Source: Parcubacteria group bacterium GW2011_GWA2_40_14 | Lineage (GTDB): Bacteria; Patescibacteriota; Minisyncoccia; Phycocordibacterales; DATDWN01 | DNA length: 64,000 nucleotides | Assembly: GCA_000996025.1 (NCBI GenBank) | Contig: LBYF01000001.1 | Span: 3,507 to 67,506 of the forward strand | Direction of reading: 5' to 3' | Shown: positions 8,791 through 56,530 of the stretch, in pieces | Layout: every line of letters starts with the position of its first letter | Position numbering within the stretch: the first letter of the stretch is position 1 | The notes under the pieces: generated by a model | What the model saw: the letters and a program-made list of their open reading frames with translations, nothing else | Databases searched by the model: none | Told to the model about the DNA's origin: nothing | Position numbers and translations under genes: made by a program

Positions 8791-8826
8791 GACTTCCAAA
8801 TCTGGCGCATTTCGTTGTTGGAAAGC
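8791..8826. repeat. Family-5 motif (GACTTCCAAATCTGGCG...GTTGTTGGA) immediately after the pilB stop
   Basis: The same words follow the tuf stop at 31221. Confidence 0.6.
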
Positions 8827-8883
8827 AAAAAATAAATCTTATACACAATTTTTGTGAAAATAAAATAAAATTTTGGTACAATA

Positions 8884-8967
8884 AACATACGAAATAACGA
8901 ATTAAAACACGAATGGCTACGGATTATTCGTTGCAATTCGTAGACCCATTCGTTACTTCGTATATTT
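8884..8967. repeat. Family-1 palindromic repeat; abuts the pilC start codon
   Basis: The copy ends ...cgttacttcgtatatttATG. Confidence 0.75.
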
Positions 8968-10182
8968 ATGTTATTTCATTACAAAGCACTGGATAGTACA
9001 GGGAAAGAGGTTGAGGCAAATCTGGAAGCCAAGGACAGGTTTGCTCTGTATCATGCCGTAAAAAAAGATGGCAATACAGTTATCTTTACAGAGGAAGTCA
9101 AAGCCAAAGGAAGATTTTCCTTGATAAAACTTTTACCATTTTTGGATAATGTTACAGCCCATGACAAAATAATTTTTGCCAGAAATCTTTCCAAAATGAT
9201 TCTGGCCGGTCTGCCCATTACTCGGGCCCTCTCTATTATGGAGAGGCAAGCCCGCGGCGGATTAAAGTCAGTTTTGAAAAATTTGAGTGAATCGGTAGGA
9301 AAAGGCACTACACTTTCCGAATCAATGAAAAATTTTCCAGATGTTTTTTCAACCCTTTTTACTTCAATGGTCCGAGCTGGAGAAGAATCAGGGAATTTGG
9401 CAACTAGCTTGGAGAATGTTGGTATGCAAATGGAGAAAACATACCAGCTTAATCGTAAAATACGCGGAGCAATGCTCTATCCGGCCATTATTCTGCTACT
9501 GATGGTCGCTATAGGTATTCTGATGATGGTTTATATGGTGCCGACATTAACTGCCACATTTATCGGTCTCAATTTAGACCTGCCGGTTTCTACACGCATT
9601 ATCATTTTTGTCAGTAATTTTCTAGCCGGTTATTTTACATTTTTTATTTTGGGAGTTGTGGTGACGACTGTCCTCCTCGTTTTTGCTTTTCGTAGCGACC
9701 AAGGGAAACGACTTTTAGAGGCGTTTCTTCTTCGCCTACCTATTATCGGAGAAATAGTAAAGGAGATTAATTCAGCGCGGACGGCCCGAACATTATCCTC
9801 GCTTCTTTCTTCGGGGGTGGATATTGTCTTGGCAGTCGGAGTGACAAAAGATGTCATACAAAACTCCTATTACAAAAAAGTTTTGGAAGAAGTGCAGATT
9901 AATATTCAAAAAGGAGAGGCCATCTCATCAGTTTTTTCATCTCATATTGATTTATATCCTATTTTTGTCGGGGAAATGGTAAATGTGGGAGAGGAAACGG
10001 GTAAAATAGCCGAAATGCTTAGCAATGTTGCTTTATTTTATGAGGAAGAAGTAGACCAAAAGACAAAAGATATTTCCTCTTTGATTGAACCGTTTTTGAT
10101 GATTTTTATTGGTTTGGCAGTTGGATTTTTCGCCATGGCGGTTATTAGCCCTATCTACTCATTAGGGGACTCCATACAATGA
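8968..10182 (+). CDS. pilC: Type IV pilus inner-membrane platform protein PilC/GspF
   Basis: There are two GspF repeats with TM segments. The stop overlaps the next start (ATGA). Confidence 0.9.
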   Translation: MLFHYKALDSTGKEVEANLEAKDRFALYHAVKKDGNTVIFTEEVKAKGRFSLIKLLPFLDNVTAHDKIIFARNLSKMILAGLPITRALSIMERQARGGLKSVLKNLSESVGKGTTLSESMKNFPDVFSTLFTSMVRAGEESGNLATSLENVGMQMEKTYQLNRKIRGAMLYPAIILLLMVAIGILMMVYMVPTLTATFIGLNLDLPVSTRIIIFVSNFLAGYFTFFILGVVVTTVLLVFAFRSDQGKRLLEAFLLRLPIIGEIVKEINSARTARTLSSLLSSGVDIVLAVGVTKDVIQNSYYKKVLEEVQINIQKGEAISSVFSSHIDLYPIFVGEMVNVGEETGKIAEMLSNVALFYEEEVDQKTKDISSLIEPFLMIFIGLAVGFFAMAVISPIYSLGDSIQ

Positions 10183-10643
10183 AATTAAATTATAAATCTG
10201 GGTTTACAATTTTTGAATTTCTCATAGCCATTTCTATCATGGCTCTTCTTGTGGCCATAGTATTTTCTGGTTTTATAAACTTGAGGAAACATCAGGCCTT
10301 AAAATTGGATACGGAAACTATCGCGGGAATATTACGAGAAGCTAGGAGTGAAACTCTGGCATCCAAAAATGGAACGCGATATGGAGTGCATTTCTCGGCT
10401 ACAAAAGTTACTCTCTTTGCCGGTTCTGTGTACAATCCAAGCGACCCCAATAACAAAGATTTTATGTTGAATGCAAGTGATGCAGTTTTTAACATCACTC
10501 TTGCCGGTGGAGGAAGCGATGTTATCTTTAATCGTTTGACCGGAGAAACATCGCAAAATGGCGTGATTACTCTTTCCTCCCCATCCACAGCACAAATAAA
10601 AACTGTTACAGTATACAAAACAGGAGTAGTTGAAAGTAATTAG
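10179..10643 (+). CDS. Prepilin-type N-terminal cleavage/methylation domain pseudopilin
   Basis: The N-terminus KSGFTIFEFLIAISIMALL is a class III signal (G|FTxxE plus a hydrophobic helix). Confidence 0.7.
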   Translation: MKLNYKSGFTIFEFLIAISIMALLVAIVFSGFINLRKHQALKLDTETIAGILREARSETLASKNGTRYGVHFSATKVTLFAGSVYNPSDPNNKDFMLNASDAVFNITLAGGGSDVIFNRLTGETSQNGVITLSSPSTAQIKTVTVYKTGVVESN

Positions 10644-10669
10644 GGAGTCTATAATACAATTTATATACA

Positions 10670-11158
10670 ATGTGGTCATACAATAAAAAAAACAATCGCG
10701 GTATGGCTCTAATAGAAATAGTCATAGGGGCCTCTATCATATCGGTCGGCATTTTGGCCATTTCTACCGCTTACAATACATATGTACAGCATGCTTTTGC
10801 AAACGAGAAAAATATCCAGGCGGCCTATATTTTGGAGGAGGGATTGGAAGCGGTAACACTCCTGCGTGACAAGGGGTGGAATGCAAATATCAAACTGCTT
10901 TCCACCACAACCACATATTATTTGACCTTGGTCCCGACCTACTGGGCTACCACAACCACACCACAATATATTGATGGAACATTTCTACGAAATATTGCTA
11001 TTACCGATGTAAAGCGCGACCTAAACGACCGTATCGCCACCGCAGGCACATATGACCCAAACACAAAACTAGTCACGGCGACAGTTTCCTATTTCCAAGG
11101 ACACGGCACGACCACGCGCTCCCTTTCAACTTATATAGCTAACATATATAACAACTGA
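10670..11158 (+). CDS. Pseudopilin (prepilin-type N-terminus)
   Basis: The N-terminus reads RGMALIEIVIGASIISVGILAI. Confidence 0.65.
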   Translation: MWSYNKKNNRGMALIEIVIGASIISVGILAISTAYNTYVQHAFANEKNIQAAYILEEGLEAVTLLRDKGWNANIKLLSTTTTYYLTLVPTYWATTTTPQYIDGTFLRNIAITDVKRDLNDRIATAGTYDPNTKLVTATVSYFQGHGTTTRSLSTYIANIYNN

Positions 11159-11160
11159 AC

Positions 11161-22006: not shown

Positions 22007-22023
22007 AATTTTCATATAATAAA

Positions 22024-22072
22024 ATCATACACGTTCTTTGCGATCGCAAAGAACGTGTATGATTTTATTATG
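22024..22072. terminator. Perfect 22-bp-stem palindrome centred on GCGATCGC between the convergent MBL gene and rpmB
   Basis: The sequence is aaaatcatacacgttctttgcgatcgcaaagaacgtgtatgatttt. Confidence 0.6.
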
Positions 22073-22089
22073 AGTAAAACGTGGGAGTT

Positions 22090-22332: not shown

Positions 22333-22445
22333 AGTGTTTACGACTTCCAAATTTGGCGAACTCCTTGCTAAAATCTGAAAAATTCTCGTCACCGTACATG
22401 AGTACGACTCCTCGCTTTTTTCAGATTTTCACTTCGGATTTCATC
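22333..22445. repeat. Family-5 element forming the rpmB 5' leader (CGCCAAATTTGGAAGTC motif 10 nt upstream of the ATG)
   Basis: It shares a GTCACCGTAC..GTACG hairpin core and CCAAATTTGG terminal words with the copies at 31221 and 43411. Confidence 0.65.
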
Positions 22446-22507
22446 CAAATTATGAAAGTCTTGAATATATAATAATATCCGCGTTATGGTATCATAGAAT
22501 TATAAAT

Positions 22508-23216: not shown

Positions 23217-23264
23217 CATTTTGTTTGCAATTTTTTTCTATACACCACGAGCTTAAAAGACTTT

Positions 23265-23400
23265 CAGATTTGAGACAAGGTCGCGTATAAAATGCAAAAG
23301 AGAAGCGGAGGCGTACTTAGTGGTACGACGAGCATCACTTTTGCATTTTAGACGATGAGATTGGCCAAATGTGGAAGTCAAAAACCACACGGTTGCAATA
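23265..23400. promoter_or_regulatory. rpsL leader: 12-bp-stem hairpin (aaaatgcaaaag...cttttgcatttt) plus a GATTGGCCAAATGTGGAAGTC family-5 motif
   Basis: The same 14-mer gagattggccaaat occurs in the rplT leader, and related motifs occur in the tuf, rpmB and rpmC leaders. Confidence 0.55.
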
Positions 23401-23429: not shown

Positions 23430-23843
23430 ATGTCTACGATAAATCAGTTAGTCCGTCACAAGCGAACAAAAGTTAAAGTTAAGCCGCGAGCAGTGGCTCT
23501 TACTCGCGGATTTAACAATCTGACAAACCGTCCGGTTTTTTATCCTGCTCCATTCAAACGAGGGGTTTGCACAAAAGTAACAACAAAGACTCCAAAGAAA
23601 CCAAACTCTGCTATACGAAAGATTGCCCGTGTTCGTCTGACAAACGGCATGGAAGTGACAGCTTATATTCCGGGTATGGGACATACTCTACAAGAGCACT
23701 CTGTGGTTTTGCTTCGAGGCGGAAAGGTGAAAGATGTCGGTGTACGTTATACTATTGTCCGAGGGATGTTAGACGCGACTGGGGTAGAAAAGAGAATGAA
23801 GGGGCGAAGCCGTTACGGTGCCAAGAGACCGAAAGGCAAATAA
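23430..23843 (+). CDS. rpsL: 30S ribosomal protein S12
   Basis: [12 protein letters not shown]...[10 protein letters not shown] is S12-like. The start was moved to the internal ATG. Confidence 0.9.
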
Positions 23844-23936
23844 TCGAGACACGAGTACCGAGATACGAGAAACGAAGAAAATAAATGCATTCATAATCGT
23901 AATTCGGGTCTCGTAACTCTTAACTCTATCAAAAAG
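23844..23936. repeat. Family-3 palindromic repeat (CGTAACTCT words) between rpsL and rpsG
   Basis: The arms are cgagacacgagtaccgagatacgag...cgtaattcgggtctcgtaactcttaactc, and the copy ends 10 nt before the ATG. Confidence 0.7.
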
Positions 23937-24425
23937 ATGAGAAGAAAAGTCATAAACAGAAATATAGTTGGAAAAGATATTGAGTTCAACTCGGAAAAAG
24001 TTGGCAAATTTATTAATTATGTTATGGAAAGGGGTCAGAAAGAAACTGCGCGAAAAATTGTTTACGACGCATTTGAAATAATAAAAGATAAGGCGTTAGC
24101 TACGAAAGAAGCTACGATCGCGGATGCGCTTGAAATTTTTGAAACAGCTTTGAAAAATACGGGACCTTTGACAGAAGTTCGTTCACGAAGAGTTGGTGGG
24201 GCCAACTATCAGATTCCTCGTGAAGTTCGCCCAGAGAGACGAGTTTTCCTTTCCATGAAATGGATTATTGACTCTGCTCGCGATGGCAAGGGCAAGCCAA
24301 TGGCAAAAAAATTGGCAGATGAAATTATTTTAGCAAGTAAAAATGAAGGTAAAGCTGTTAAAAAGAGGGAAGATACGCACAAGATGGCGGAGGCCAATAA
24401 GGCCTTCGCCCATTTTGCATGGTAG
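23937..24425 (+). CDS. rpsG: 30S ribosomal protein S7
   Basis: The 162-aa ORF is typical S7 (GKKETA..VGGANYQIP). Confidence 0.9.
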   Translation: MRRKVINRNIVGKDIEFNSEKVGKFINYVMERGQKETARKIVYDAFEIIKDKALATKEATIADALEIFETALKNTGPLTEVRSRRVGGANYQIPREVRPERRVFLSMKWIIDSARDGKGKPMAKKLADEIILASKNEGKAVKKREDTHKMAEANKAFAHFAW

Positions 24426-24620
24426 TTTTTCTGGTCTTTTTGCCGAATTTCTTTGCTCTCGGTTTTGCCTGCTCCACGCAACGTACTGCTGTACGTTTTG
24501 GTCACAGTCAAAACCTGCGATCTTCGAAATTCAACAAAAATCCTCACAAAAACTTACAACTTTGACCTTTGCGAAAAATCCTCGGACCGAAAATATTCTC
24601 AACATCTGAATTTAACTAGG
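24426..24620. repeat. Degenerate family-5-like element in the rpsG-fusA spacer
   Basis: It contains an acgtac..gtacgt hairpin and a ggtcac word. This is the weakest match in the family. Confidence 0.35.
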
Positions 24621-29867: not shown

Positions 29868-29940
29868 ATTAAACATCGCGTTTTCGTGATTTTTTAATTT
29901 TATAAACAATTTATTAAATAACCACACGCTTTCAGATTTG

Positions 29941-29993
29941 GATGCCGAGCACCAGAAAATTCATTGGTGCTTCGGCGCCAAATGTGGAAGCTC
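29941..29993 (+). promoter_or_regulatory. tuf 5' leader: hairpin (gccgagcacc...ggtgcttcggc) followed by the family-5 motif GCGCCAAATGTGGAAGCTC
   Basis: The motif is complementary to the tuf trailer motif at 31221-31240. Confidence 0.5.
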
Positions 29994-30016: not shown

Positions 30017-31222
30017 ATGGCAGAATCAGCAAAATTTGATAGAAGCAAGCCCCACATCAATGTGGGTACTATTGGTCACGTTGACCACGGCAAGACTACA
30101 TTAACAGCAGCTATTTTGGCTGTGCTTGGAAGAGCTGGCGCGGGATATTCATCCAGACTAAAAGGAGTTGACCAAATCGACTCCGCACCTGAAGAAAAAG
30201 CTCGTGGAATCACCATCGCTTTATCCCACAACGAGTATGAGACACCTGCCCGTCACTATGCTCACGTGGATGCTCCTGGTCACGCCGACTATATTAAAAA
30301 CATGATTACTGGCGCCGCACAGATGGACGGCGCAGTCCTTGTGGTTGCCGCAACAGACGGTGTCATGCCTCAAACACGAGAGCATGTTCTCCTTGCAAAA
30401 CAAGTTGGTGTGCCAAAGATAATCGTATTTCTAAACAAATGCGATATGGTTCCAGACAAAGAGCTTATTGATTTGGTGGAGGAAGAAGTTCGAGAACTTC
30501 TAACAAAACAAGGTTTTGATGGCGCGGGAGCTCCTGTAATCCGAGGTTCAGGATTGAAAGCTCTTGAGTCAAAAGACAATACAGACGAATGGGCAATGAA
30601 AGTTCTGGACTTGGCTAGTGCATTGGACACATATTTCCCAATTCCACAGCGAGATTTGGACAAGCCATTCCTCATGCCAGTTGAAGACATTTTCTCTATT
30701 GAAGGACGAGGTACTGTAGTAACAGGCCGTATTGAAAGAGGCGTTGTTAAAGTTGGCGAGGAAATAGAATGTATTGGATTGAAAGACACACAGAAATATA
30801 CAGTTACTGGTATTGAAATGTTCAACAAGTCTCTTGACCAAGGTCAGGCAGGAGACAACGCTGGAATCTTGCTCCGTGGTGCCAAGAAAGAAGAAATTCA
30901 CCGAGGTCAGGTGCTGTCAAAGCCAAAGTCTGTTACTCCTCACACAGAATTTACAGCAGAGGTTTATATCTTGAAGAAAGAAGAAGGTGGACGACACACA
31001 CCTTTCTTTACTGGTTACAAACCGCAGTTTTACATCCGAACAACAGATGTTACAGGTGACGTTACTCTAAACGAAGGTGTTGAGATGGTCATGCCTGGAG
31101 ATACAGTCACTTTCAAAGTAAAGCTCGTTGCTCCGGTTGCGCTTGAAGACAATACGCGATTTGCTATACGCGAGGGAGGAAAGACTGTTGGCGCTGGGGT
31201 CGTTACCAAGATCATAGCGTAA
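30017..31222 (+). CDS. tuf: Elongation factor Tu
   Basis: The G1 motif [10 protein letters not shown] and the rest of the 401-aa ORF are canonical EF-Tu. Confidence 0.95.
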
Positions 31223-31340
31223 CTTCCAAATTCGGCGTACTGCGTTGTTGGACTTCAAAATTTGATTGTCACCGTACGACGAGTACGGCTCCAATCAAAT
31301 TCCTCGTCCGCCTAGCATCGCATCTAAATTTGAAAGTTAG
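31221..31340. repeat. Family-5 element after tuf (AACTTCCAAATTCGGCG ... GTCACCGTACGACGAGTACGGCTCC ... AAATTTGAAAGTT)
   Basis: It has CCAAAT-type terminal inverted repeats and a central hairpin, and there are about nine related copies. Confidence 0.7.
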
Positions 31341-34427: not shown

Positions 34428-34438
34428 CTCTACCCAAT
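34355..34438. repeat. Family-3 palindromic repeat overlapping the rplD 3' end
   Basis: The copy reads gagtaaagagtaaagagttacg...cgatactcataactcgtaactct. Confidence 0.7.
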
Positions 34439-36962: not shown

Positions 36963-36973
36963 CTCTACCTACC
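36885..36973. repeat. Family-3 palindromic repeat overlapping the rplV 3' end
   Basis: The copy reads gagaatcgagaaccgagtaccgagaaacg...cgaaactcgtatctcgtatctcttaactct. Confidence 0.7.
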
Positions 36974-37633: not shown

Positions 37634-37721
37634 AAAGTTTGTAAAGTTATAAAGTTCATAAAGTAAAATCCATAATCCACTTTACAAACTTTAAAAACTT
37701 TCAACTTTATAAACTAAATTT
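37634..37721. repeat. Family-2 palindromic repeat between rpsC and rplP
   Basis: The copy reads aaagtttgtaaagttataaagttcataaagt ... ctttacaaactttaaaaactttcaactttataaact. Confidence 0.75.
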
Positions 37722-38138
37722 ATGTTGTTACCAAAAAAAGTAAAATACAGAAAGTGGCAAACATTTCGAAAGAACGCTAATAAAGTTGGTGTGGCTTCAC
37801 GTGGTACCACTATTTCTTTCGGCTCTCATGCCTTGAAAGCCCTGTCAGGAGCGCGTATTATGTCAAACCAGATTGAAGCTGGCAGAAAAGCCCTATCTCG
37901 CGCAGTTGGTAAGACCGGCAAGATTTGGATCCGCATTTTTCCAGATATGCCCCTGACCAAAAAGCCAGCTGAAGTGAAGCTTGGTAAAGGAAAGGGTGAT
38001 TTGTTTGGCTACTGCGCGCCGGTTAAGCCAGGAAGAATTATTTTTGAAGTTGATGGTGTTACGGATGCAGTTGCCAGAGAAGCTTTGCGAAAAGCTGGAA
38101 CGAAATTACCCCTCAAAACAAAGATAATCTCTCACTAG
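37722..38138 (+). CDS. rplP: 50S ribosomal protein L16
   Basis: [11 protein letters not shown]...GKGKGD is typical of L16. Confidence 0.9.
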
Positions 38139-38320
38139 AACTTCCAAATTATGACCAATGTGATTTTTCACAATTCAACTTCAGATTTTCCTCCTTACAG
38201 GAGCAGTACACCTTTTCGATCTTTTGAGTACAAAAACTCTGAAAAGGTCTTGCGAAGTCATACCCATGACTTCTCACTCGACCTTGGCCAAATTTGAAAG
38301 TTCTAGCCAAATGTGAAATT
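38139..38320. repeat. Family-5 element after rplP with 14-bp terminal inverted repeats (AGAACTTCCAAATT / AATTTGAAAGTTCT); it also supplies the rpmC leader motif GCCAAATGTGAAAT
   Basis: It has a terminal-inverted-repeat structure and shares its internal start AAATTATGACC with the copy at 43411. Confidence 0.7.
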
Positions 38321-38543: not shown

Positions 38544-38801
38544 ATGAATAATGAAAAAATAAAAAATAATACAGTAAAAACTCTCTCGGGAGTAGTAGTG
38601 TCAAATAAGATGACAGACACTGTTGTGGTGGAAGTTGTTCGTTTTGTAAAACATCCAAAGTACGGCAAGTACGTCTCTAAAAGCAAAAAGTTTAAAGCCC
38701 ACGATGTCGGCAATACAAAGCAAATTGGGGATAAGGTTACCATAGAGGAGTGCAGACCAATTTCAAAAGATAAACACTTTAGAATAGTCGAAAGTTCGTA
38801 A
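38544..38801 (+). CDS. rpsQ: 30S ribosomal protein S17
   Basis: [18 protein letters not shown]...HD is the S17 OB fold. Confidence 0.85.
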
Positions 38802-38878
38802 AGTTATAAAGTTCATAAAGCAGACTCAAAACCCACTTTACAAACTTTAAAAACTTTATAACTTTATAAACTAAAATT
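38802..38878. repeat. Family-2 palindromic repeat between rpsQ and rplN
   Basis: The copy reads gaaagttcgtaaagttataaagttcataaagc...ctttacaaactttaaaaactttataactttataaact. Confidence 0.75.
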
Positions 38879-39250
38879 ATGATCCAACCGCAATCAATTG
38901 TCAAAATAGCAGATAACACCGGAGCAAAAATCGGACGCGTGTTCAAAGTGCTCGGAAGTTCCAAAAAGAGATACGCCAGCATAGGCGAGTTGGTGGTTCT
39001 CTCTGTCCAGAAAGCTGAACCTAGAAAAACAACAAAGAAAAAAGATATTTTGTATGCAGTGGTTGTCCGTCAACGAGCGCCTTTTCGAAGAAAGGACGGC
39101 TCATATATTCGTTTTGACGAAAATGCAGTAGTTATAGTGGTCAAAGATAAAAAAGAGCCGGTAGCAGGACGTATTTTCGGTCCTATCCCGCGGGAACTTG
39201 GTGAGATGGGGTATCAAAAGATTATTAGTTTAGCCCCAGAAGTAGTCTAA
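38879..39250 (+). CDS. rplN: 50S ribosomal protein L14
   Basis: MIQPQSIVKIADNTGAK is typical of L14. Confidence 0.9.
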   Translation: MIQPQSIVKIADNTGAKIGRVFKVLGSSKKRYASIGELVVLSVQKAEPRKTTKKKDILYAVVVRQRAPFRRKDGSYIRFDENAVVIVVKDKKEPVAGRIFGPIPRELGEMGYQKIISLAPEVV

Positions 39251-39335
39251 AATTGAGTCAAGAGTAGCGAGATAAGAGTCACGAAGAATGCAAAATCGTA
39301 ACTCGAGTCTCGGAACTCGTAACTCTATCAATATC
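39251..39335. repeat. Family-3 palindromic repeat between rplN and rplX
   Basis: The copy reads gagtagcgagataagagtcacg...cgtaactcgagtctcggaactcgtaactct. It creates a spurious upstream ORF extension of rplX. Confidence 0.7.
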
Positions 39336-39602
39336 ATGAATGTAAAAAAAGATGACAAAGTAATAGTGCTCACCGGTAAAGACAAAGGTAAAACAGGAAC
39401 CGTTGTCAAATCATTTCCAAAAGAAAACAGAGTCATTGTTTCTGGTGTAAATATTTTGAAAGTTCATCAGAAGCCTCGAAAGAGTGGAGAGAAAGGACAG
39501 ATACTAGACAAGACCATGCCGATAGATGTATCCAACGTAAAAAGGGTCGAGGCACGAGGTACGAGAAAAGAGACCCGAAAAATCAAAGGCTCAAAATCGT
39601 AA
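39336..39602 (+). CDS. rplX: 50S ribosomal protein L24 with a repeat-encoded C-terminal tail
   Basis: MNVKKDDKVIVLTGKDKGK is the KOW domain. The track ORF starts 16 codons upstream, inside the repeat. Confidence 0.85.
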   Translation: MNVKKDDKVIVLTGKDKGKTGTVVKSFPKENRVIVSGVNILKVHQKPRKSGEKGQILDKTMPIDVSNVKRVEARGTRKETRKIKGSKS

Positions 39603-39637
39603 CTCTATACTCGTAACTCTTAACTCTATTAAAAACT
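39560..39637. repeat. Family-3 palindromic repeat overlapping the rplX 3' end
   Basis: The copy reads gtacgagaaaagagacccg...cgtaactctatactcgtaactcttaactct. Confidence 0.7.
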
Positions 39638-40234
39638 ATGGAATCAATCAAAGAAAAAACAAAAGAAGCTTTTGATATTATGAAATCGGAGTTTCATTAT
39701 AAAAACATCATGCAAGCCCCAAAAATAGAAAAGGTGGTGATTTCTTGTGGTGTTGGTTCGCAGAAAGACAAAAAGAAACTAGACCTTATAGAAGACCGCC
39801 TCTTAAAAATCACAGGACAGAAACCTGTTCGCAAGGGCGCAAAAATATCAATCGCCGCTTTCAAAGTGCGAGAAGGGGATACTGTCGGTATGCAAATCAC
39901 TTTGCGTGGACAGAGAATGTATGATTTTCTGGACCGATTGGTCAATATTGCACTTCCTCGCACGAAAGATTTTCGAGGAATCTCAGCAAATGCAGTTGAT
40001 GAAATGGGTAACTACACTTTAGGTATAAAAGAAAACACTATTTTCCCAGAGTCGTCCGATGAAGATTTGAAAGATGTTTTCGGTCTTGCCGTTACTATTG
40101 TTACAAATGTTAAAAACAAAGATGAGACAAAAGCTTTTTTGACTCACCTCGGTTTTCCCTTCAAAAAACAATCAGCCGATAAGGCGAAAGCTACGACAGT
40201 CCATGTATCAAAAAGCCGAGCCCCAAAGAAGTAA
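39638..40234 (+). CDS. rplE: 50S ribosomal protein L5
   Basis: The 198-aa ORF has L5 motifs and a basic C-terminal tail. Confidence 0.9.
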   Translation: MESIKEKTKEAFDIMKSEFHYKNIMQAPKIEKVVISCGVGSQKDKKKLDLIEDRLLKITGQKPVRKGAKISIAAFKVREGDTVGMQITLRGQRMYDFLDRLVNIALPRTKDFRGISANAVDEMGNYTLGIKENTIFPESSDEDLKDVFGLAVTIVTNVKNKDETKAFLTHLGFPFKKQSADKAKATTVHVSKSRAPKK

Positions 40235-40261: not shown

Positions 40262-40310
40262 TTTTTTACTCATACACCTATCACACGCTATAGCGTGTGA
40301 TAGGTGTATG
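40262..40310. repeat. Family-7 perfect palindrome (20-bp stem, GCTATAGC centre)
   Basis: The sequence is actcatacacctatcacacgctatagcgtgtgataggtgtatgagt. Confidence 0.7.
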
Positions 40311-40424
40311 AGTTGAACAAGTTTTAATAGGTTTATATATTATTATGTGCTAATATTAATAATAGAAGTTGAGACAGTTTAGTCTCAATATATTTTGTCA
40401 GAAATCACGACTAAAGGAGAAAGT

Positions 40425-40664
40425 ATGAAGTCAAAGAGTTATCTTGGATTTTTGATGTTGTTGGCGTTGATGTTATTTTTGGTTTTGCTTCCGTCCGCAT
40501 TTTCAAGTGTCTATCAAAACACCGGAAACGGGTTGATTCCAGAGTGGACATTTGGAACAAAAACACAAGACCGTGTTGAGACAAACCAAAAGAAGGAGTG
40601 TTTTGAGACGGATGCAAAACAGCCATTCAAGTTTGATGTCTGTTATGTGCCAAACAGACCTTAG
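40425..40664 (+). CDS. Small secreted/membrane protein (signal-anchor) with an SD (AAGGAG)
   Basis: MKSKSYLGFLMLLALMLFLVLLPSAF is a hydrophobic N-terminus. The ORF is inserted between rplE and rpsN. Confidence 0.45.
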   Translation: MKSKSYLGFLMLLALMLFLVLLPSAFSSVYQNTGNGLIPEWTFGTKTQDRVETNQKKECFETDAKQPFKFDVCYVPNRP

Positions 40665-40937
40665 AGAAAGAAAGACGTTCCAGCTTCGACCTTGCCGAAC
40701 TTTTCTCTGCTGTAAAGTCCACGAACTATAAGGAGTTAAAACTTGTATTTGTGGCCACAAGTAGGAGTGGAGATGTAAGTAAAGTTGAATGCACATTCAA
40801 GTTTCAATGAACTGGGCGGGTGGATTTTCAAGGCGGTGAGGAGAGACCTGCCGCCTTTTTGTTTTGTTTGACAATTTGTGTGTATATATGGTAGTTTGTT
40901 TTTAGAATCAGTTCGTCAAAAACAGGGGGGATTATCG

Positions 40938-41912
40938 ATGTCAAAGACTCAACAGCTTGGCAAAAACATGAGTCCAAGCAAAACAAAACTGGGAAAGTTT
41001 TTACGAAAATGTCGTATTAAACTTGGATTAAGGCAAGTTGAAGTAGGCAGACTTTCAATGGTTAAACAATCAGACTACAGTCATTTTGAAACTGGTAGAT
41101 CCAAATATCTCAATCCCAAACAAATCAAAGGTTTAGCCAAAACTCTGAAGTGTCAAGAGGTGGAATTGGAAATTCTTGTTCCACCAAAACCAAAACCAAA
41201 ACAGGAACCTACAACTGAACTCGGCTTACTTATCCGCAACCGAAGGGAAGAGCTTGGGCTGACGATTGAGACTTTTGCCAAAAAGCTCAAAATATCCCTG
41301 GCACAAGCAAAATGTTTGGAAACCCGAATAGCCGAGCGAATGAAGTACAAGTTGTTTGAACCTCTTTTAAGAGTTCTGGAATTAAAACCGTCAGATTTAG
41401 GTAGATTTGTGGGCTGGACTAAAAACGAAAGCCTCACCAGTTTAGGTCAAGTCATCCGTTCACGCCGTAAAGAGCTTGGATTTTCGTTAGCAAGTCTTGG
41501 CCAGAAATTAGGTATCACTCGCGAGCGAGTACGTCAGATTGAGAATAATCGGTCTTCCTTTAGTAATAAAGGGAATAAACTTAAGAAGATAGCTAAAATT
41601 CTCAATCTGAATTTTTCTGAATTGCAAGCATTACAGCCGGCGCGGAGATTCAAAAGAGGCAAGATAGGTACCGACACATTTGGTGGGTTTCTGACTGCTC
41701 GGAGGGTAGAACTTCACCTGACACAATACGAACTTGCTGAACGTGTGGGAATTTCACCAAACACAATCTGTGCCACAGAATTAGGAAAATTTGTGCCTAA
41801 TTCCGATATGTTGGGAAAGATGGCGACGGCTCTTGACTGCGTTATTCCATCTCAACTCATTCTGATTCCTCGTAAGCGCGGTCGTCCTCGGAAGGATTTG
41901 ATTAACTCGTGA
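40938..41912 (+). CDS. Four-repeat XRE-type helix-turn-helix DNA-binding protein with a C-terminal AT-hook (RGRPRK)
   Basis: There are four HTH_XRE-like units (LRQVEVGRLS..., LTIETFAKKL..., FSLASLGQKLGITRERVRQIE..., LTQYELAERVGISPNTIC...), an SD (aggggg), and the ORF sits inside the spc operon. Confidence 0.7.
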   Translation: MSKTQQLGKNMSPSKTKLGKFLRKCRIKLGLRQVEVGRLSMVKQSDYSHFETGRSKYLNPKQIKGLAKTLKCQEVELEILVPPKPKPKQEPTTELGLLIRNRREELGLTIETFAKKLKISLAQAKCLETRIAERMKYKLFEPLLRVLELKPSDLGRFVGWTKNESLTSLGQVIRSRRKELGFSLASLGQKLGITRERVRQIENNRSSFSNKGNKLKKIAKILNLNFSELQALQPARRFKRGKIGTDTFGGFLTARRVELHLTQYELAERVGISPNTICATELGKFVPNSDMLGKMATALDCVIPSQLILIPRKRGRPRKDLINS

Positions 41913-42216: not shown

Positions 42217-42345
42217 CCAGAAAAATGTAAACTGTAAAAATCAAAATGGAAAATGACAGATTAAAATTAAAAATGATGAATTCAGAAATTTTGCATTTTA
42301 CATTGTCATTTTGATTTTTGATATTTACATTTTTAATTATATTTT
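42217..42345. repeat. Family-4 AT-rich ~120-bp palindromic repeat (core AGATTAAAATTAAAAATGATGAATTCAGAAATTTTGCATTTT)
   Basis: Three copies share an identical 42-nt core, and each ends at the next start codon. Confidence 0.8.
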
Positions 42346-42732: not shown

Positions 42733-42864
42733 CACTTTGAAGAATGTAAAGTGTAAATATCAAAATGAAAAATTATAGATTAAAATTAAAAATGATGAAT
42801 TCAGAAATTTTGCATTTTACATTGTCATTTTACACTTCGATTTTTTAATTTTACATTTACTACC
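42733..42864. repeat. Family-4 repeat copy
   Basis: It has the same core as the copy at 42217. Confidence 0.8.
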
Positions 42865-43410
42865 ATGTCAAGAATCGGAAAAAAAGTAATAGCAATTCCT
42901 GAAAAGACCGAAGTATCCATAACTTACGGAATTTTCACCGTAAAAGGCCCGTTAGGAACTCTTACAAAAAAATTCAAGCCAGAAATTGAAATCACAATCG
43001 GGGCAAATGAAAAAAGTAGCGAAGTTAGACTTGTGCCAAAGCGTATAACTCTAGAGAACAAAGCTTTGTGGGGGACATACGCTTCTCATATTATGAATAT
43101 GATTTCTGGTGTAACTACCCCATACATTAAGAAATTGATTATTGAAGGTATTGGATACAAATCAGAAGTTAAGGGTGATAAACTTGTTCTTGCTCTCGGC
43201 TTTTCTCATCCTGTTATTGTTCCTATACCGGCGACACTTAAAGTTACTGCCGAGAAAAATATAATCACAGTAACTGGTATAGACAAAGAGGAGGTCGGTG
43301 GATTTGTGGCCAATATTCGCTCTCTCAAAGTACCAGAGCCATATAAAGGAAAAGGAATTAGGTATGAGGGGGAAGTAATCAAACGCAAGCAAGGCAAGAA
43401 AACTGCCTAA
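42865..43410 (+). CDS. rplF: 50S ribosomal protein L6
   Basis: MSRIGKKVIAIPEK is typical of L6. Confidence 0.9.
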   Translation: MSRIGKKVIAIPEKTEVSITYGIFTVKGPLGTLTKKFKPEIEITIGANEKSSEVRLVPKRITLENKALWGTYASHIMNMISGVTTPYIKKLIIEGIGYKSEVKGDKLVLALGFSHPVIVPIPATLKVTAEKNIITVTGIDKEEVGGFVANIRSLKVPEPYKGKGIRYEGEVIKRKQGKKTA

Positions 43411-43535
43411 ACTTTCAAATTATGACCCATCTCATCGTCTAAAATTTGAAAAAGAATCGTCACCTACGCACTCAGGTAGGCTCCAATTCTTTTTCAAATT
43501 TTATACGCGACCTAGGTCAAATTTGAAAGTTTAGG
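43411..43535. repeat. Family-5 element with a perfect 13-bp terminal inverted repeat (AAACTTTCAAATT / AATTTGAAAGTTT) and a central hairpin GTCACCTAC...GTAGGCTCC
   Basis: It has terminal inverted repeats, and its internal hairpin is shared with the copy at 56405. Confidence 0.75.
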
Positions 43536-43908: not shown

Positions 43909-44487
43909 ATGGAACCAGAAATACAAAAAGAAATAATAAACGAAGAAGTCATAGAAACACCTGTTGTAAAGGGTATTATTTCTGTACCTGCTATCCGTGA
44001 ATTCAGAAAGAATTCTCGCAAGCCATCTCCTCGTCGGGAAGGACGTGTCAAAGCGGAGTTTGACCAGAAAATTGTCAGCATCAGACGTGTTACTCGTGTT
44101 GTTACCGGTGGTCGTCGCTTTGCTTTCTCTGTCGGTATAGTTATCGGTGATAGAAAGGGCAGAGTGGGTGTTGGACAAGGAAAGGCCGGAGATACACCTC
44201 TTGCTATAGACAAAGCGGTACGCGATGCAAGAAAAAATATGATTAGAGTGGCTATGACAAAGAACTCCTCCATTTCTCACGAGGTGGATGCCAAGTTCGG
44301 GAGCTCTCGCGTTCTTATCATGCGAGCTCCGGGCAAGGGAATTCTAGCGGGTTCTTCTGTCCGAACAGTTCTGGAATTTGCCGGTGTAAAAGAAGTAAGC
44401 GCAAAGTTGTTTTCTAGGAGCAAAAATAAAGTAAACAATGCCAAAGCGGCCATTAAAGCTTTAGCACAGCTAAAGCCTAAAATGTAA
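43909..44487 (+). CDS. rpsE: 30S ribosomal protein S5
   Basis: The S5 dsRBD and C-terminal domain are present (RRVTRVVTGGRRF). Confidence 0.9.
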   Translation: MEPEIQKEIINEEVIETPVVKGIISVPAIREFRKNSRKPSPRREGRVKAEFDQKIVSIRRVTRVVTGGRRFAFSVGIVIGDRKGRVGVGQGKAGDTPLAIDKAVRDARKNMIRVAMTKNSSISHEVDAKFGSSRVLIMRAPGKGILAGSSVRTVLEFAGVKEVSAKLFSRSKNKVNNAKAAIKALAQLKPKM

Positions 44488-44602
44488 AATTTAAAAATCA
44501 AAATGGAAAATGACAGATTAAAATTAAAAATGATGAATTCAGAAATTTTGCATTTTGTATTGTCATTTTAATTTTTGATATTTACATTTTTAATTTATTA
44601 TC
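44488..44602. repeat. Family-4 repeat copy (in the position where rpmD/L30 would normally sit)
   Basis: It has the same core as the copy at 42217. Confidence 0.8.
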
Positions 44603-47863: not shown

Positions 47864-48184
47864 GTGTTTTTGGTGTATAATAAAGAAATGAAATTAAGTA
47901 TTGAGGAAATAAAAGAAAAAATAACTCCGATTTTGGAGAAGTACGGCGTGACTTACGCCGGTGTTTTCGGTAGTGTGGCGCGCGGTGATGCTCGTCCGGA
48001 CAGTGACGTGGATATTCTCGTTAAAATCCGTAATCCCATTAGCATATTCGTCTTTTTTAAGATGAATGATGAATTGGAAGAAATATTGGGACGAAAGGTG
48101 GATTTAGTGACGGAAAACTCTCTTATTCGTTATTTCAAGCCATATGTGATGCTTGATTTAAAGCCACTCTATGAAGTCAGATAA
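47864..48184 (+). CDS. Nucleotidyltransferase antitoxin MntA (minimal NTase)
   Basis: GVFGSVARGDARPDSDVDILV is the pol-beta-type NTase signature. Confidence 0.8.
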   Translation: MFLVYNKEMKLSIEEIKEKITPILEKYGVTYAGVFGSVARGDARPDSDVDILVKIRNPISIFVFFKMNDELEEILGRKVDLVTENSLIRYFKPYVMLDLKPLYEVR

Positions 48185-48488
48185 AGTATACTGCGAATAT
48201 ATTATCAGTTGTATAGATAAAGTTGGCCGTTTTACTTCTGGAATGAAACGAGAGGATTTTCTTGCAAGTGAGTTAGTGCAAAGTGCAGTAATCTTGCAAC
48301 TCCTTCTTATTGGTGAATTGTCAAAAAATTTATCGTCTGAATTTAAGAAAAGTACTGATTTGCCTTGGACACAAATTTCCGGTTTCCGAAATAGAGCAAT
48401 CCATAATTATTATGAACTTGAGCTGGAATTCGTTTGGTTTGCAGTTCAAAATGATTTGTTTCCTATTAAAGAAGCTGTCTCCAAATAA
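48171..48488 (+). CDS. HepT (DUF86) HEPN-family toxin
   Basis: RNRAIHNY matches the R-x4-H-x-Y HEPN motif. The gene overlaps the NTase gene by 14 nt. Confidence 0.8.
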   Translation: MKSDKVYCEYIISCIDKVGRFTSGMKREDFLASELVQSAVILQLLLIGELSKNLSSEFKKSTDLPWTQISGFRNRAIHNYYELELEFVWFAVQNDLFPIKEAVSK

Positions 48489-49129: not shown

Positions 49130-49399
49130 ATGACACAAGTAGTTATAAATTTCAAAACGGATGCTAAGCTAAAGAGCGCAGCCAAAGATGTTCTCGATGA
49201 GATGGGTCTGAATTTTTCCATTGCTTTTAACGCCTACATGAAAAAGTTGATTACTGAGAGGAGAATAGAGTTTACCACGCCAGAGATACCCAACGCTCGA
49301 CTCCGGAAAGCAATAAAAGAGGCGGATAAAGAGTATAAGAGCGGTAAGTTAAAGTTTTATACTGATATGCGCGAGATGCGCAAGTCATTAGGTGTATAA
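49130..49399 (+). CDS. RelB/DinJ-family antitoxin
   Basis: The small RHH-like protein immediately precedes a YafQ-like toxin. Confidence 0.6.
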   Translation: MTQVVINFKTDAKLKSAAKDVLDEMGLNFSIAFNAYMKKLITERRIEFTTPEIPNARLRKAIKEADKEYKSGKLKFYTDMREMRKSLGV

Positions 49400-49402
49400 A
49401 CT

Positions 49403-49663
49403 ATGCACATCGCTTTTTCTTCGAGTCTTAATAAAAAGATTAAGAAAATTCCAACAAAAATAGTTGATAAATTTTTTGAGCGATTGGAGATTTTTAAAAA
49501 GGATATATTTAGTCCAATTTTAAACAATCATAAATTGCACGCTGAATACGAAGGGTGTAGCAGTATAAATGTCACAGGTAATTTTCGAGCGATATTTAAG
49601 CATGTCGATGATAATCATGTCGTTTTTTCTGATTTAGATACTCACCCCGAACTCTACGGCTAA
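49403..49663 (+). CDS. YafQ/RelE-family mRNA interferase toxin
   Basis: The C-terminus HKLHAEYEGCSSINVTGNFRAIFKHVDDNHVVFSDLDTHPELYG parallels the YafQ C-terminus. Confidence 0.65.
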   Translation: MHIAFSSSLNKKIKKIPTKIVDKFFERLEIFKKDIFSPILNNHKLHAEYEGCSSINVTGNFRAIFKHVDDNHVVFSDLDTHPELYG

Positions 49664-52589: not shown

Positions 52590-52868
52590 ATGAATACACC
52601 CTTAAGTCAGTTTATAAAACAGAGGCCTCATTTGATTTGGTATACCAAAAACTATGACGGTTTGGACGCCGAATCCATCGTTGAAGCTACACTAAACTAT
52701 GGTAATTGGGACGATGTGCAGGAACTTATAAAAATTCTAGGAATGAAAAAAACCGCCCAGATTTTCCGAGAAAAATCCAAACCGGATAAATTTGGCAGAC
52801 AGAATTACGATTCTCGGGTAAAAAATTATTTTCAACTATACTTTGGTAAATATGTCAAACATGCATAA
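52590..52868 (+). CDS. Hypothetical protein, possible cognate partner of the downstream AbiEii-like toxin
   Basis: The ORF overlaps the next gene by 26 nt. No family was recognised. Confidence 0.3.
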   Translation: MNTPLSQFIKQRPHLIWYTKNYDGLDAESIVEATLNYGNWDDVQELIKILGMKKTAQIFREKSKPDKFGRQNYDSRVKNYFQLYFGKYVKHA

Positions 52869-53472
52869 AGAAATTTTTACACAAGAACAGATTAAACTTC
52901 TACCTTTGATTAGGAAATTTTCCAAGGATTTCGGTCTTGTTGGTGGGACAGCCATTGCATTGCATTTAGGTCATAGGCGCTCAATAGACTTTGACATGTT
53001 TTCCAATAAACCGTTCAATAATGTGGCTGTGCGTAGGAAAATAAAAAATACGCACAGTATTCAAAAGGTCTTCAAAGACGAAACAGGACAATACACTTTT
53101 TTTGTTAATGAGGTGCAAATGACTTTTTATCATTTTCCCTATGAGATTGATTATTCGGAAAAATTTGAAGATTATGTCAAAATACCAAATCTGCTCATTC
53201 TCGCTGCGATGAAAGCTTTTGCTCTTGGTGGAAGAAATAAATGGAAGGACTATGTTGATTTATATTTTATTCTCAATAACCGTTTTTCTGTAGATGAAAT
53301 CTCCAAAAAAGCCAAAGAACTTTTCCAGGGAGAATTTAATGAAAAAATTTTTCGAAATCAGCTAGCTTATTTTGACGATATAAATTACAAGGAAACGGTG
53401 GACTTTCTGCCGGATTTTGAAGTGAGCGATGAAACGGTAAAAAAAGCTCTGATTGATTTTAGTATTTCCTGA
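52843..53472 (+). CDS. AbiEii/AbiGii-family nucleotidyltransferase toxin (DUF1814)
   Basis: GLVGGTAIALHLGHRRSIDFDMF is the characteristic DUF1814 motif. Confidence 0.7.
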   Translation: MVNMSNMHKEIFTQEQIKLLPLIRKFSKDFGLVGGTAIALHLGHRRSIDFDMFSNKPFNNVAVRRKIKNTHSIQKVFKDETGQYTFFVNEVQMTFYHFPYEIDYSEKFEDYVKIPNLLILAAMKAFALGGRNKWKDYVDLYFILNNRFSVDEISKKAKELFQGEFNEKIFRNQLAYFDDINYKETVDFLPDFEVSDETVKKALIDFSIS

Positions 53473-55422: not shown

Positions 55423-55467
55423 ATTGCTAATTGATTTTTAATGACGAAGTGATATACTGGAGGCACT

Positions 55468-55656
55468 ATGAGCAAAGCTGAAAAGGAAATTGTAAAAGTG
55501 GTCAAAAAGACAATTCTCGAATCTATTCATGGGGTTTTTGCCGACCCTGATCAAGGACTGGAACTCAAAGAATCTATAAAAAGACGCCTGAAAAAAGCAT
55601 CGTTATCTCCCAAAGGATTTATTACCCTTCCATCCGCCAGAAGAAAATTTGCTTAA
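55468..55656 (+). CDS. Putative antitoxin for the downstream RelE/ParE toxin
   Basis: The 62-aa ORF has an SD (GGAGG) and sits 5 nt before the toxin gene. Confidence 0.45.
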   Translation: MSKAEKEIVKVVKKTILESIHGVFADPDQGLELKESIKRRLKKASLSPKGFITLPSARRKFA

Positions 55657-55661
55657 TTTAT

Positions 55662-55925
55662 ATGTTGCGCTGGAAAGTAATTTTTTCGCTTGACGCACAA
55701 GATGATTTGGATAATTTGTCTCGCTCAGTGCGGGATAGGGTTTTTGATAAGCTGGGATGGTTTGAAAATAATTTTGACTCAATAACACCTCTCCTTTTAA
55801 CTGGGAAGTTTAACGGTTTCTACAAGTTGCGAGTGGGTGATTGGCGGGTAATGTATCAGATTGATTGGAATAAAAATTATATTATTATTCATGTTATTGA
55901 CCACAGATCAAACATCTACAAGTAA
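55662..55925 (+). CDS. RelE/ParE-family toxin
   Basis: YKLRVGDWRVMYQIDWNKNYIIIHVIDHRSNIYK is the canonical RelE/ParE C-terminus. Confidence 0.75.
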   Translation: MLRWKVIFSLDAQDDLDNLSRSVRDRVFDKLGWFENNFDSITPLLLTGKFNGFYKLRVGDWRVMYQIDWNKNYIIIHVIDHRSNIYK

Positions 55926-56059
55926 CTGTTATGAGGAAACGCTTTAAAAATAAGAGAGAGAGTCATGTGCTTTATGTAAACCCCATAAGCGAGGTTGGGC
56001 AATGCGCTGGAGTTCAAAAGAAGCCGAACTACTTAGAGTTTTTGAAAGAGAGAAGGCTC

Positions 56060-56404
56060 TTACTTTGCGAATTCCAGAATTTTTTTAAATGTATTAGGAT
56101 TTTCAATAACAAGAGTAGCTAGAATTTTGCGGTCTAGGAGGATGCCTTTCTTTTTTAAACCACCCATAAGTTTGCTATATGATGTCCCAAGTTCTTTTGA
56201 GGCGTATGAAATTTTGACATTCCAGAGTTTGCGAGCGTCGCCCTTTTTGTCTCGTCTGTGCGCAAAAGCGTAAGCTCCAGCGTGAAAGATGGCTTCTTGG
56301 GCTTCCCGCTCCTTTGTAGAACGGCCATGTCGATAGCCTTTTGTCTTACGAAGAATGTTTTTACGATTCTTTAATGCATTGACCCCTTTTTTTACTCGTG
56401 TCAT
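56060..56404 (-). CDS. rplT: 50S ribosomal protein L20
   Basis: MTRVKKGVNALKNRKNILRKTKGYRHGRS is typical of L20. Confidence 0.9.
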   Translation of the reverse strand: MTRVKKGVNALKNRKNILRKTKGYRHGRSTKEREAQEAIFHAGAYAFAHRRDKKGDARKLWNVKISYASKELGTSYSKLMGGLKKKGILLDRKILATLVIENPNTFKKILEFAK

Positions 56405-56530
56405 AAATGTTACGATTTACATATTTGGCCAATCTCTGCGTTAAAACTGCAAAAATGCTCGTCACCTACCAACGAGGTAGGCTCCTCAATTTTTGCAATT
56501 TTGCCTTGATATTGTCTCAAATCTGTAAAT
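56405..56530. repeat. Family-5 element forming the rplT 5' leader (minus strand); GAGATTGGCCAAATATG lies 20 nt upstream of the ATG
   Basis: It shares the 14-mer gagattggccaaat with the rpsL leader and the hairpin CGTCACCTAC..GTAGGCTCC with the copy at 43411. Confidence 0.7.

Follow-up and report, generated by a model that had tools for sequence, protein, structure and literature searches.

The 64,000-nucleotide stretch of contig LBYF01000001.1 from Parcubacteria group bacterium GW2011_GWA2_40_14 that was analysed here (positions 3,507 to 67,506; hereafter the window) carries nine members of a hairpin-forming intergenic repeat, Family 5, of which five are canonical; the others are a divergent, a composite, a short and a truncated copy. 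The reading that we favour, and to which we would give about an even chance, is that Family 5 is an interspersed, non-coding hairpin repeat of ~120 bp, similar to REPINs (doublets of REP, repetitive extragenic palindromic, sequences) or to ERIC/Correia elements, that it is native to a subclade of Paceibacteria (Candidatus Zambryskibacteria and relatives), and that it is co-transcribed as hairpins at the ends of cistrons. The window has a G+C content of 39%, and its genes include pilB/pilC, rpmB, the str, S10 and spc ribosomal-protein operons, infC-rpmI-rplT and the gene for transfer-messenger RNA (tmRNA).

The original prediction had picked out a short motif in the leaders of several genes and its complement just after the stop codons of others, and had likened the longest examples to miniature inverted-repeat transposable elements (MITEs). 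All of the motifs that it quoted were found again at or near the places it gave:
Leader motifs: rpsL, 23357-23379; tuf, 29974-29992; rpmB, 22342-22358 (minus strand); rpmC, 38307-38320; rplT, 56421-56440 (minus strand)
Trailer motifs: pilB, 8791-8807; tuf, 31221-31237; rplP, 38137-38150; rplF, 43409-43421

Alignment and an nhmmer profile showed that leader and trailer motifs are the two arms, or termini, of one imperfect palindrome of ~120 nt. The motifs ahead of rpsL, rpmB and rplT are present but not isolated; each is the end of a complete element of 117-121 nt in the opposite orientation, Family 5 copies overall measuring 117-128 nt. In the following list, the strand of each copy is that of its better-folding ('strong') hairpin, folding energies are given for the strong versus the weak strand, and paired bit scores (for example 109/103) come from two covariance models (CMs), the second being R2:
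8791..8833, minus: truncated copy in the pilB trailer, only the 43 nt proximal to the open reading frame (ORF), 5 nt after the pilB stop; nhmmer model 1-43, E = 4.6e-6
22342..22460, minus: full copy in the leader of rpmB (L28), stopping 9 nt short of the ATG; CM 109/103 bits; fold -47.5 versus -32.7 kcal/mol
23258..23378, plus: full copy in the leader of rpsL, whose true ATG (23430) follows after ~50 nt; CM 104/87 bits; fold -47.6 versus -34.5 kcal/mol
24426..24553, minus: divergent member in the rpsG trailer, directly after the stop; CM R2 28.7 bits, E = 0.0045 with filters off; fold -50.3 versus -34.6 kcal/mol
29929..29993, plus: short 65-nt variant in the tuf leader, 23 nt before the ATG; 24.8 bits; fold -35.2 versus -25.1 kcal/mol
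31221..31340, minus: full copy in the tuf trailer, its first bases overlapping the tuf stop (TAA-CTTCC…); CM 106/112 bits; fold -48.7 versus -37.2 kcal/mol
38139..38303, minus: composite of 165 nt in the rplP trailer, with Family 5 termini and lower stem; CM 29 bits; fold -58.5 versus -48.4 kcal/mol
38306..38320, plus: isolated terminal fragment GCCAAATGTGAAAT upstream of rpmC, read directly from the sequence
43410..43533, minus: full copy filling the whole rplF-rplR spacer; CM 106/91 bits; fold -62.1 versus -45.9 kcal/mol
56414..56530, minus: full copy between rpmI and rplT (minus-strand genes), 9 nt before the ATG; CM 106/89 bits; fold -40.3 versus -31.3 kcal/mol

The full elements match one another at nhmmer E = 1e-25 to 1e-27 and score 87-112 bits with the CM, which bears out the claim of repeated, MITE-like hairpin elements; the exact sequence CCAAATNTGG is over-represented in the window as well, with 5 occurrences against 0.84 expected. 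All nine copies are intergenic in a window that is ~89% ORF (chance ~3e-9). The region 38139-38320, previously described as one full element, does have the family termini, but its interior is a foreign three-hairpin 'module X' (38192-38279) in place of a GTCACC...GGCTCC centre, and the fragment at 38306-38320 is separate and was not detected as a full element by nhmmer or CM. The divergent member after rpsG has alternative termini (…CTGGTCTTTTT / AAAAATCCTCA…), of the same type as in copies L032:8485 and L171:4225 on related contigs (L numbers), and L039 likewise has a Family 5 copy after rpsG. The short variant ahead of tuf shares the family termini, with another, GC-rich sequence between them. 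The rpmB mRNA has the strong strand in its leader, and the rplF copy starts at the rplF stop codon and leaves 6 nt to the rplR ATG.

Each copy folds into one long hairpin, with folding z-scores of -4.5 to -12. The strong strand (5'-AACTTTCA…CCAAAT.TGGAAGTT-3') is the more stable in 39 of 39 copies, with a mean of -50.1 versus -37.0 kcal/mol, an asymmetry that is smaller but still there with DNA folding parameters. A 50-pair structure was taken from the consensus of the per-copy minimum-free-energy (MFE) folds and its pairs were counted on 26 copies. Paired cells amounted to 83%, as against 65% in shuffles and 34-47% with the partners slid, and double (compensatory) changes were found at 44 of the 50 pairs, values reached by none of 500 shuffles; as the alignment was fitted to a related model, these counts lean slightly toward structure. 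The basal helix P1, which holds the motif noted earlier, covaries at 10 of its 12 pairs, and at least eight members have unrelated terminal sequences yet keep the pairing (for example CTCTGAGGATTTTT…AAAAAGACCAGAG and GGTTCAAAAAATT…), the termini being the least sequence-constrained helix of the family. The most conserved parts are internal, namely a CGAGGC / CAACAAAGG asymmetric loop and an apex, GAG-NC-GUAC…GUAC-GN-UGA, which is read as tandem G·A plus G·U and is sometimes doubled as GAGGAG/UGACGAG. Small asymmetries also recur: the distal arm has a 1-nt bulge, and the proximal arm one additional base. Non-canonical pairs on the strong strand are one-sided (G·U 165 versus A·C 56; G·A 129 versus C·U 24), and trailers (106:34) show this bias no less strongly than leaders.

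A K-turn or box C/D reading of the G·A motifs was rejected, there being no bulge and no consensus. Rfam 15 contained no matching family; the sole match above gathering score in the window was the tmRNA gene (61444-61842, minus strand; RF00023, 76.9 bits), and E-value scans over two Family 5 copies and the composite copy returned noise only. No U tract was found after Family 5 elements, which thus lack the mark of an intrinsic terminator; genuine terminators lie 15-45 nt downstream of the trailer copies, the one for tuf at 31374-31405.

The position of the copies relative to genes obeys a simple rule. ORFs were called anew around 47 copies from the window and its relatives, and 20 flanking proteins were checked with Pfam. 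In 40 of the 47, the strong strand points with its 3' end to the nearest ORF boundary (Fisher p ~7e-7), so that the earlier claim of one orientation before starts and the complement after stops holds for these copies; the remaining seven are unclear or exceptions. In 27 trailers, the strong-strand 3' end lies on a convergent stop codon (-2 to +10 nt), the TAA often being formed with the element's first A's, and in 13 leaders it lies 4-50 nt before a same-strand start, at 6-9 nt in about half. The other (strong-strand 5') end rarely abuts anything. It follows from this rule that, in the mRNA sense, trailers show the weak strand and leaders the strong one. The flanking genes are not confined to translation:
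Trailer genes: tuf (3 copies), rplF (2), rplP, rplW, rplB, rplK, rpsG (2), rpsE, secY, pilB (3), pilC, dnaE, ribonucleotide reductase, peptidyl-prolyl isomerase (PPIase), others
Leader genes: rpsL, tuf, rpmB, rplT, rpsN, rplC, bipA, pth, ftsA, clp, others

Trailer copies are preceded by the stop codon and followed by the next cistron or a genuine intrinsic terminator, and leader copies sit downstream of promoter-like sites, that of the tuf leader being TTGACA-17-TAGTAT. Beside trailers, no consistent antisense promoters were seen; terminators stand there instead. Orientation relative to GC skew is confounded with gene direction, and the informative cases obey the ORF rule and not the skew. This last site is a strong one and, with a small hairpin and T run that follow it (29839-29890), lies upstream of the Family 5 copy; together with the Family 5 hairpin, this could be an attenuator-like arrangement.

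Family 5 is present well beyond the window, in at least 47 copies on ~30 contigs of Ca. Zambryskibacteria-like Paceibacteria (GTDB genomes and metagenome contigs). The first CM found copies in 4 of ~46 Patescibacteria rplC loci (L009, with three, L032, L039 and L044), and a pattern scan of metagenomes followed by the CM gave ~35 further copies on ~25 contigs. Those copies that can be placed belong to relatives of the window, with rplC proteins 50-76% identical, and several of the contigs are syntenic with it: L097 (tuf-rpsJ-rplCDWB), L164 (pilB-pilC), L177 (rplR-secY) and L186 (rpsE-rplO). By rplC, the nearest GTDB species are Candidatus Zambryskibacteria metagenome-assembled genomes (75-76% identity), followed by other Paceibacteria/Parcubacteria, and an identical rplF protein occurs on Rifle groundwater contigs, including GCA_000995545.1 and GCA_001825405.1. 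On viral contigs there were 86 pattern matches; the CM, run on 80 loci, found no family member, and the subtype-A pattern gave 0 matches. Subfamilies are common to several genomes and mix leaders with trailers. Every window copy has its nearest relative in another genome, at a site other than its own (74-80% identity), and the same is true over all copies, with 70-85% identity at non-orthologous sites. There is no near-identical swarm, and Family 5 is accordingly old.

Conservation of position among relatives, by which the original prediction was to be judged, is partial. The pilB 3' site is shared (a full copy in L164, 7135-7259, and the truncated one in the window, with flanking synteny at 67-77% nucleotide identity), as is the rplF-rplR spacer, where L177 has an orthologous copy. 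Other sites vary: at the tuf 3' site, the window, L009 and L032 have a copy and L008 and L044 have none, the window and L009 copies being of different subfamilies, and the rplB 3' and rplC 5' sites are filled in L097 only. Sites without Family 5 often hold another hairpin family in the same spacer. The tuf leaders differ in L008, L032 and L039, that of L008 having a hairpin of another repeat type.

Among the strain contigs of the near-clonal Rifle population, the rplF copy is found in 7 of 7, the rplT copy is unchanged in 8 and the rpsL copy is kept; around rplF, rpsL and rpmI, only nested module X and one rearrangement vary. L211 and L212 differ from the window, to which they are otherwise 100% identical, by a three-hairpin module X of 84 nt (TGAGAAGTC…CCTGTAAGG), inserted in the rpsL-leader copy at 23359|23360 without target duplication. 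L209 is identical to the window downstream of this same bond, and upstream it has unrelated sequence, with tRNA-Tyr, a terminator and a LAGLIDADG_3 ORF (L209:2700-2930). This is a rearrangement of the gene neighbourhood with its junction inside a Family 5/module X element. Module X occurs at the following places:
L211:1381-1463
L212:71-153
Window 38192-38279: interior of the rplP composite, 90% identical to the L211/L212 insertion and 83% to L032:3222-3307
L032:3222-3307, following fusA
L159:8559-8651
L114:2641-2723

In the rpsL-leader copy, the rplP composite and L032, module X has the same orientation relative to the strong strand of its host. The third of its hairpins takes in flank bases to be complete, and these are not the same at every site (ATCC…GG|AT versus CTCC…GG|AG). 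It had no Rfam match, and a resemblance to hammerhead motifs proved unsupported. For Family 5 itself, the flanks of 26 copies and the comparison of empty with filled sites at tuf 3' and rplB 3' showed no consistent target-site duplication (TSD), these flanks being too diverged to align. TA or CTAG flanks occur in a minority of copies (tuf 3', rplF, rplP) and are inseparable from an extension of the palindrome; L032:8485 is flanked by a 13/14-nt direct repeat, and most copies have none.

The hairpins stand in an unusual translational setting. A Shine-Dalgarno (SD) core of 4 nt (GGAG, GAGG or AGGA within 25 nt of the start) precedes only 3 of 54 window genes, and start codons follow G-poor, A/U-rich sequence, from which initiation in the window appears to be SD-independent. 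Spacers longer than 40 nt in the ribosomal-protein operons are nearly all hairpins, with the stop codon in the base and an end ~10 nt before the next AUG. They come from several repeat families, some of them common to the relatives L008 and L009. Family 5 is the only one of these seen in both orientations and otherwise conforms to the same stop-to-start architecture.

In the favoured reading, copies of Family 5 are gained, lost and rearranged at the DNA level, and the likely intermediate is one particular strand in folded, single-stranded form: structure is conserved as far as the termini, the strand asymmetry does not depend on transcription, and TSDs are lacking, all of which points to such handling. 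Recognition would then be by structure and internal motifs, that is, the asymmetric loop and the tandem G·A apex, not by terminal inverted-repeat (TIR) sequence. Copies persist only in intergenic DNA, flush with an ORF end and with fixed polarity. Co-transcription would place a very stable hairpin 4-50 nt before the AUG in leaders and a weaker one, with the stop codon in its base, in trailers. Given that SD sites are almost absent and that the ribosomal-protein spacers are nearly all hairpins, such cistron-end hairpins may be tolerated or may serve the cell, most plausibly by protecting or processing mRNA ends or by coupling translation. Moving an element from the 5' to the 3' side of an ORF would keep the same arm ORF-proximal, and this flip, together with the recurrent bulge and extra-base asymmetries, suggests that a structure-specific DNA or RNA enzyme could 'see' the same cistron geometry in leaders and trailers, an idea compatible with both the polarity and the asymmetry of the trailers. 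Sequestration of SD sites by the GGAAG end was considered and dropped for a genome that barely uses them.

Several observations weigh against a mobile repeat of this kind. Pfam analysis of 30 proteins, of which 10 are encoded by window ORFs, revealed no transposase, integrase, HUH protein or RAYT. No parent insertion sequence (IS) with the same ends could be made out in the window or in related loci totalling ~2 Mb, where a regular-expression search for end pairs gave only noise. The strain contigs show no empty-versus-filled polymorphism of a Family 5 copy, all of them keeping the rplF and rplT copies. The age of the copies, at most 85% identical, implies that mobility is slow or past. No known HUH or DDE mechanism predicts ORF polarity, and GC skew is not followed independently of gene direction. 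Finally, it is on the strand antisense to their mRNA that trailers have retained G·U and G·A (106:34), so that selection for mRNA folding alone does not account for the family either. Structured intergenic repeats as such are a known bacterial kind; the literature searched contained no description of MITE- or REPIN-like families in candidate phyla radiation (CPR)/Patescibacteria, the lineage to which Family 5 belongs.

The insertion of module X without a TSD and the swap of gene neighbourhood at the same internal phosphodiester bond suggest a bolder proposal, which we put forward tentatively and consider rather unlikely: that Family 5 is an undescribed structured DNA element of the CPR, a strand-specific, ORF-polar folded hairpin that is read by its geometry and internal G·A motifs and also acts as a docking or recombination point. 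The mechanism would be either a new hairpin-targeting, single-strand recombination or transposition, or a structure-specific nuclease that reads the asymmetry of the hairpin relative to the cistron, and such a system could shape operon architecture in streamlined, SD-less genomes.

One alternative is a cis-regulatory RNA of the ribosomal-protein-leader or protein-binding type, in which strong-strand RNA would bind a protein through the G·A apex and purine-rich loop and control the downstream cistron. The mRNA-sense strand of leader copies is indeed always the strong one, 4-50 nt separate their end from the AUG, 9 of the 13 leader genes are translation-related (rpsL, tuf, rpmB, rplT, rpsN, rplC, bipA and pth among them), the purine-rich non-canonical pairs are conserved, and the doubled GAGGAG/UGACGAG apex is commoner in leaders. 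Yet 27 of the 40 placed copies are antisense to the mRNA and show the same strand asymmetry, with no antisense promoters seen beside them. Relatives do not keep the same leader positions, and their tuf, rplC and rplB sites vary; the subfamilies mix leaders and trailers, and the pilB trailer of the window is truncated without evident consequence. We regard this explanation as quite unlikely.

A classical TIR-type MITE, in which a DDE transposase acting in trans would recognise ACTT(C/T)CAAAT.TGG repeats and duplicate a TA target, is the next alternative. The size of ~120 bp, the imperfect TIRs of 13-15 bp in canonical copies, the TA or CTAG at both ends of the tuf 3', rplF and rplP copies and the direct repeat around L032:8485 are what it would lead one to expect. 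It does not fit the members, at least eight in number, whose termini are unrelated and still pair, nor the lack of constraint on terminal sequence and of a consistent TSD across the family; the TA flanks, indistinguishable from palindrome extension, are absent from most copies, and no parent IS with these ends was recognised in the ~2 Mb of related loci, where the end-pair search gave only noise. A DDE mechanism would moreover explain neither the strand asymmetry nor the ORF polarity, and we consider a classical MITE very unlikely.

Much the same doubt attaches to folded single-stranded recombination sites (attC- or dif-like), at which a tyrosine recombinase or similar enzyme would exchange ORFs or operons as units. 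Several properties recall such sites: a comparable size, imperfect palindromes with AAC…GTT ends, structure conserved over poorly conserved sequence, a strand asymmetry independent of transcription, positions directly 3' of ORFs that often overlap the stop codon, and a copy in which a rearrangement breakpoint coincides exactly with the point of a TSD-less insertion. The copies, however, are flanked by core genes whose operon order is conserved, the R-box consensus RYYYAAC/GTTRRRY is absent save for the shared AAC…GTT, leader copies are oriented opposite to what a cassette array would require, and no integrase was seen among the ORFs put through Pfam.

Two further proposals of the original prediction fare worst. 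A long-range processing stem joining leader and trailer around one cistron, as in rRNA, might be suggested by the complementary ends of the tuf leader and trailer, by their isolated co-fold (-82.3 versus -78.2 kcal/mol for two separate hairpins) and by L097, where a leader before rplC and a trailer after rplB bracket a four-gene block; but each tuf hairpin folds locally (-39.6 and -38.6 kcal/mol), the gain of ~4 kcal/mol comes before the cost of a 1.2-kb loop, the MFE fold of the full tuf mRNA has 50 leader bases paired locally and 0 with the trailer, most genes have one copy (in the window only tuf has both leader and trailer), and copies only 60-80% identical would form poorer duplexes with one another than within themselves, all of which makes such a stem highly improbable. 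It is equally hard to credit CCAAATTTGG as a palindromic double-stranded DNA operator for a regulator of translation genes, over-represented though the 10-mer is, since it never occurs outside the 120-nt hairpin context, is replaced in other members with pairing preserved, stands after stop codons as often as before starts (two-thirds of all copies being after stops), and also adjoins pilB, dnaE, ribonucleotide reductase, PPIase, ftsA, clp and secY. TIGR-Tas systems, tandem arrays of box C/D hairpins beside a Tas (Nop-domain) protein (PMC12045711), were rejected too: Family 5 copies are dispersed singly between core genes, and no Nop/Tas domain was found among the window ORFs put through Pfam.

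At least four other hairpin repeat families are present in the window (CGAG/CTCG heptamers, AAAGTT nonamers, ACGAAT units and an A/T-rich 117-nt family). They are built of short periodic units and keep a constant orientation relative to transcription. Their copies, and other features of the neighbourhood, are as follows:
23842-23940, 33618-33713, 34349-34444, 36884-36979, 37626-37724, 38783-38881, 39244-39339, 39545-39640: hairpin repeats of other families
42222-42338, 42741-42857, 44479-44595, 56749-56863, 489-574, 6933-7017, 8881-8970, 36059-36107: further hairpin repeats of other families
22009-22078: perfect 70-nt palindrome after rpmB, acting as a bidirectional terminator
31761-31798 and 40272-40309: two copies of a perfect 38-nt palindrome (ATACACCTATCAYACGCTATAGCGTRTGATAGGTGTAT)
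26970-29528: 852-aa ORF between fusA and tuf, no Pfam match, with a 24%-identical counterpart in the same place in L032
29538-29837: 99-aa ORF between fusA and tuf, weak DUF5663 match
40395-41912: region between rplE and rpsN in the spc operon, with an inserted gene for a 344-aa protein with at least four Cro/C1-type helix-turn-helix domains
47864-48488, 49130-49663, 52590-53472, 55468-56122: toxin-antitoxin or defence-type gene pairs (nucleotidyltransferase/HepT, RelB-like, AbiEii, ParE-like), interleaved with secY-adk-map and adjoining rplT

The helix-turn-helix protein (variable region ~40663-41179) ranges from 273 to 378 aa, and its surroundings vary as well, among the strain contigs L001-L007, which are identical in other respects.

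The genomes of CPR/Patescibacteria are considered streamlined and repeat-poor. Here, in a core region of ~64 kb, nine Family 5 copies and the other hairpin families occupy almost every spacer of the str, S10 and spc operons. If the hairpins are functional, they would show how SD-less organisms organise polycistronic expression; if they are selfish, active, nested and TSD-less structured elements would persist in genomes of ~1 Mb.

Among known systems, the RNase III hairpins of T7 early mRNA and the mycobacterial MIRU repeats, for both of which a role in processing or translational coupling has been proposed, resemble Family 5 in lying in intercistronic spacers with stop and start codons at their edges. 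They differ in having one orientation relative to transcription and no strand asymmetry against the mRNA sense. PATE elements derived from IS200/IS605 have no TIR and make no TSD, the latter being compatible with Family 5, but a fixed target of four or five nucleotides next to one end would be expected of them, and none is conserved on either side in the flanks of 26 copies. The attC sites of integrons, 57-141 bp long, share with Family 5 a similar size, imperfect palindromy, structure over sequence and a place directly 3' of ORFs, and it is a feature of attC that one folded strand is functional regardless of transcription. Unlike attC, Family 5 has no R-box consensus or cassette genes, and its start-proximal copies are reversed.

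Closer parallels are found among MITE-like repeats. Family 5 has the attributes by which MITE copies are recognised, being non-coding, within 70-300 bp (117-128 nt) and dispersed (nine in the window, 47 in relatives), and its canonical copies share ACTTYCAAAT.TGG ends, but sequence-conserved TIRs are not a property of the family as a whole. ERIC, Correia (NEMIS) and RUP elements are likewise imperfect palindromes of 100-150 bp beside coding regions, found in both orientations and co-transcribed into robust RNA hairpins. MITEs of these types can stabilise or destabilise flanking mRNAs (summarised in PMC3733652). They have conserved TIRs of 15-30 bp, TA duplications and a link to DDE enzymes, whereas Family 5 has covarying termini and no consistent TSD; nor is their orientation almost perfectly predicted by the adjoining ORF boundary, as it is here.

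REPINs, the REP doublets of Pseudomonas and E. coli mobilised by RAYT HUH transposases, are similar to Family 5 in being non-coding, extragenic hairpins of ~100 nt with compensatory changes (PMC3116915), in the absence of a TIR-type transposase logic, with folding of single-stranded DNA or mRNA being invoked instead, and in tying orientation to the ORF, because MITEs and REPs can abut ORFs and REP ends can supply stop codons (PMC3733652). On the other hand, Family 5 lacks the GTAG tag, and TGACG (CGTCA on the other strand), present in ~45% of copies, lies at the apex and not at the end. In Family 5, the internal loops and apex are conserved and the termini covary, whereas REPINs have conserved ends and a variable middle. 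Its copies are divergent (at most 85% identical) rather than near-identical swarms, and its strict ORF polarity extends to start-proximal copies. This ORF polarity, together with the transcription-independent strand asymmetry, is not explained by known REP, MITE or attC biology, and might offer a handle on a hairpin-recognising enzyme.

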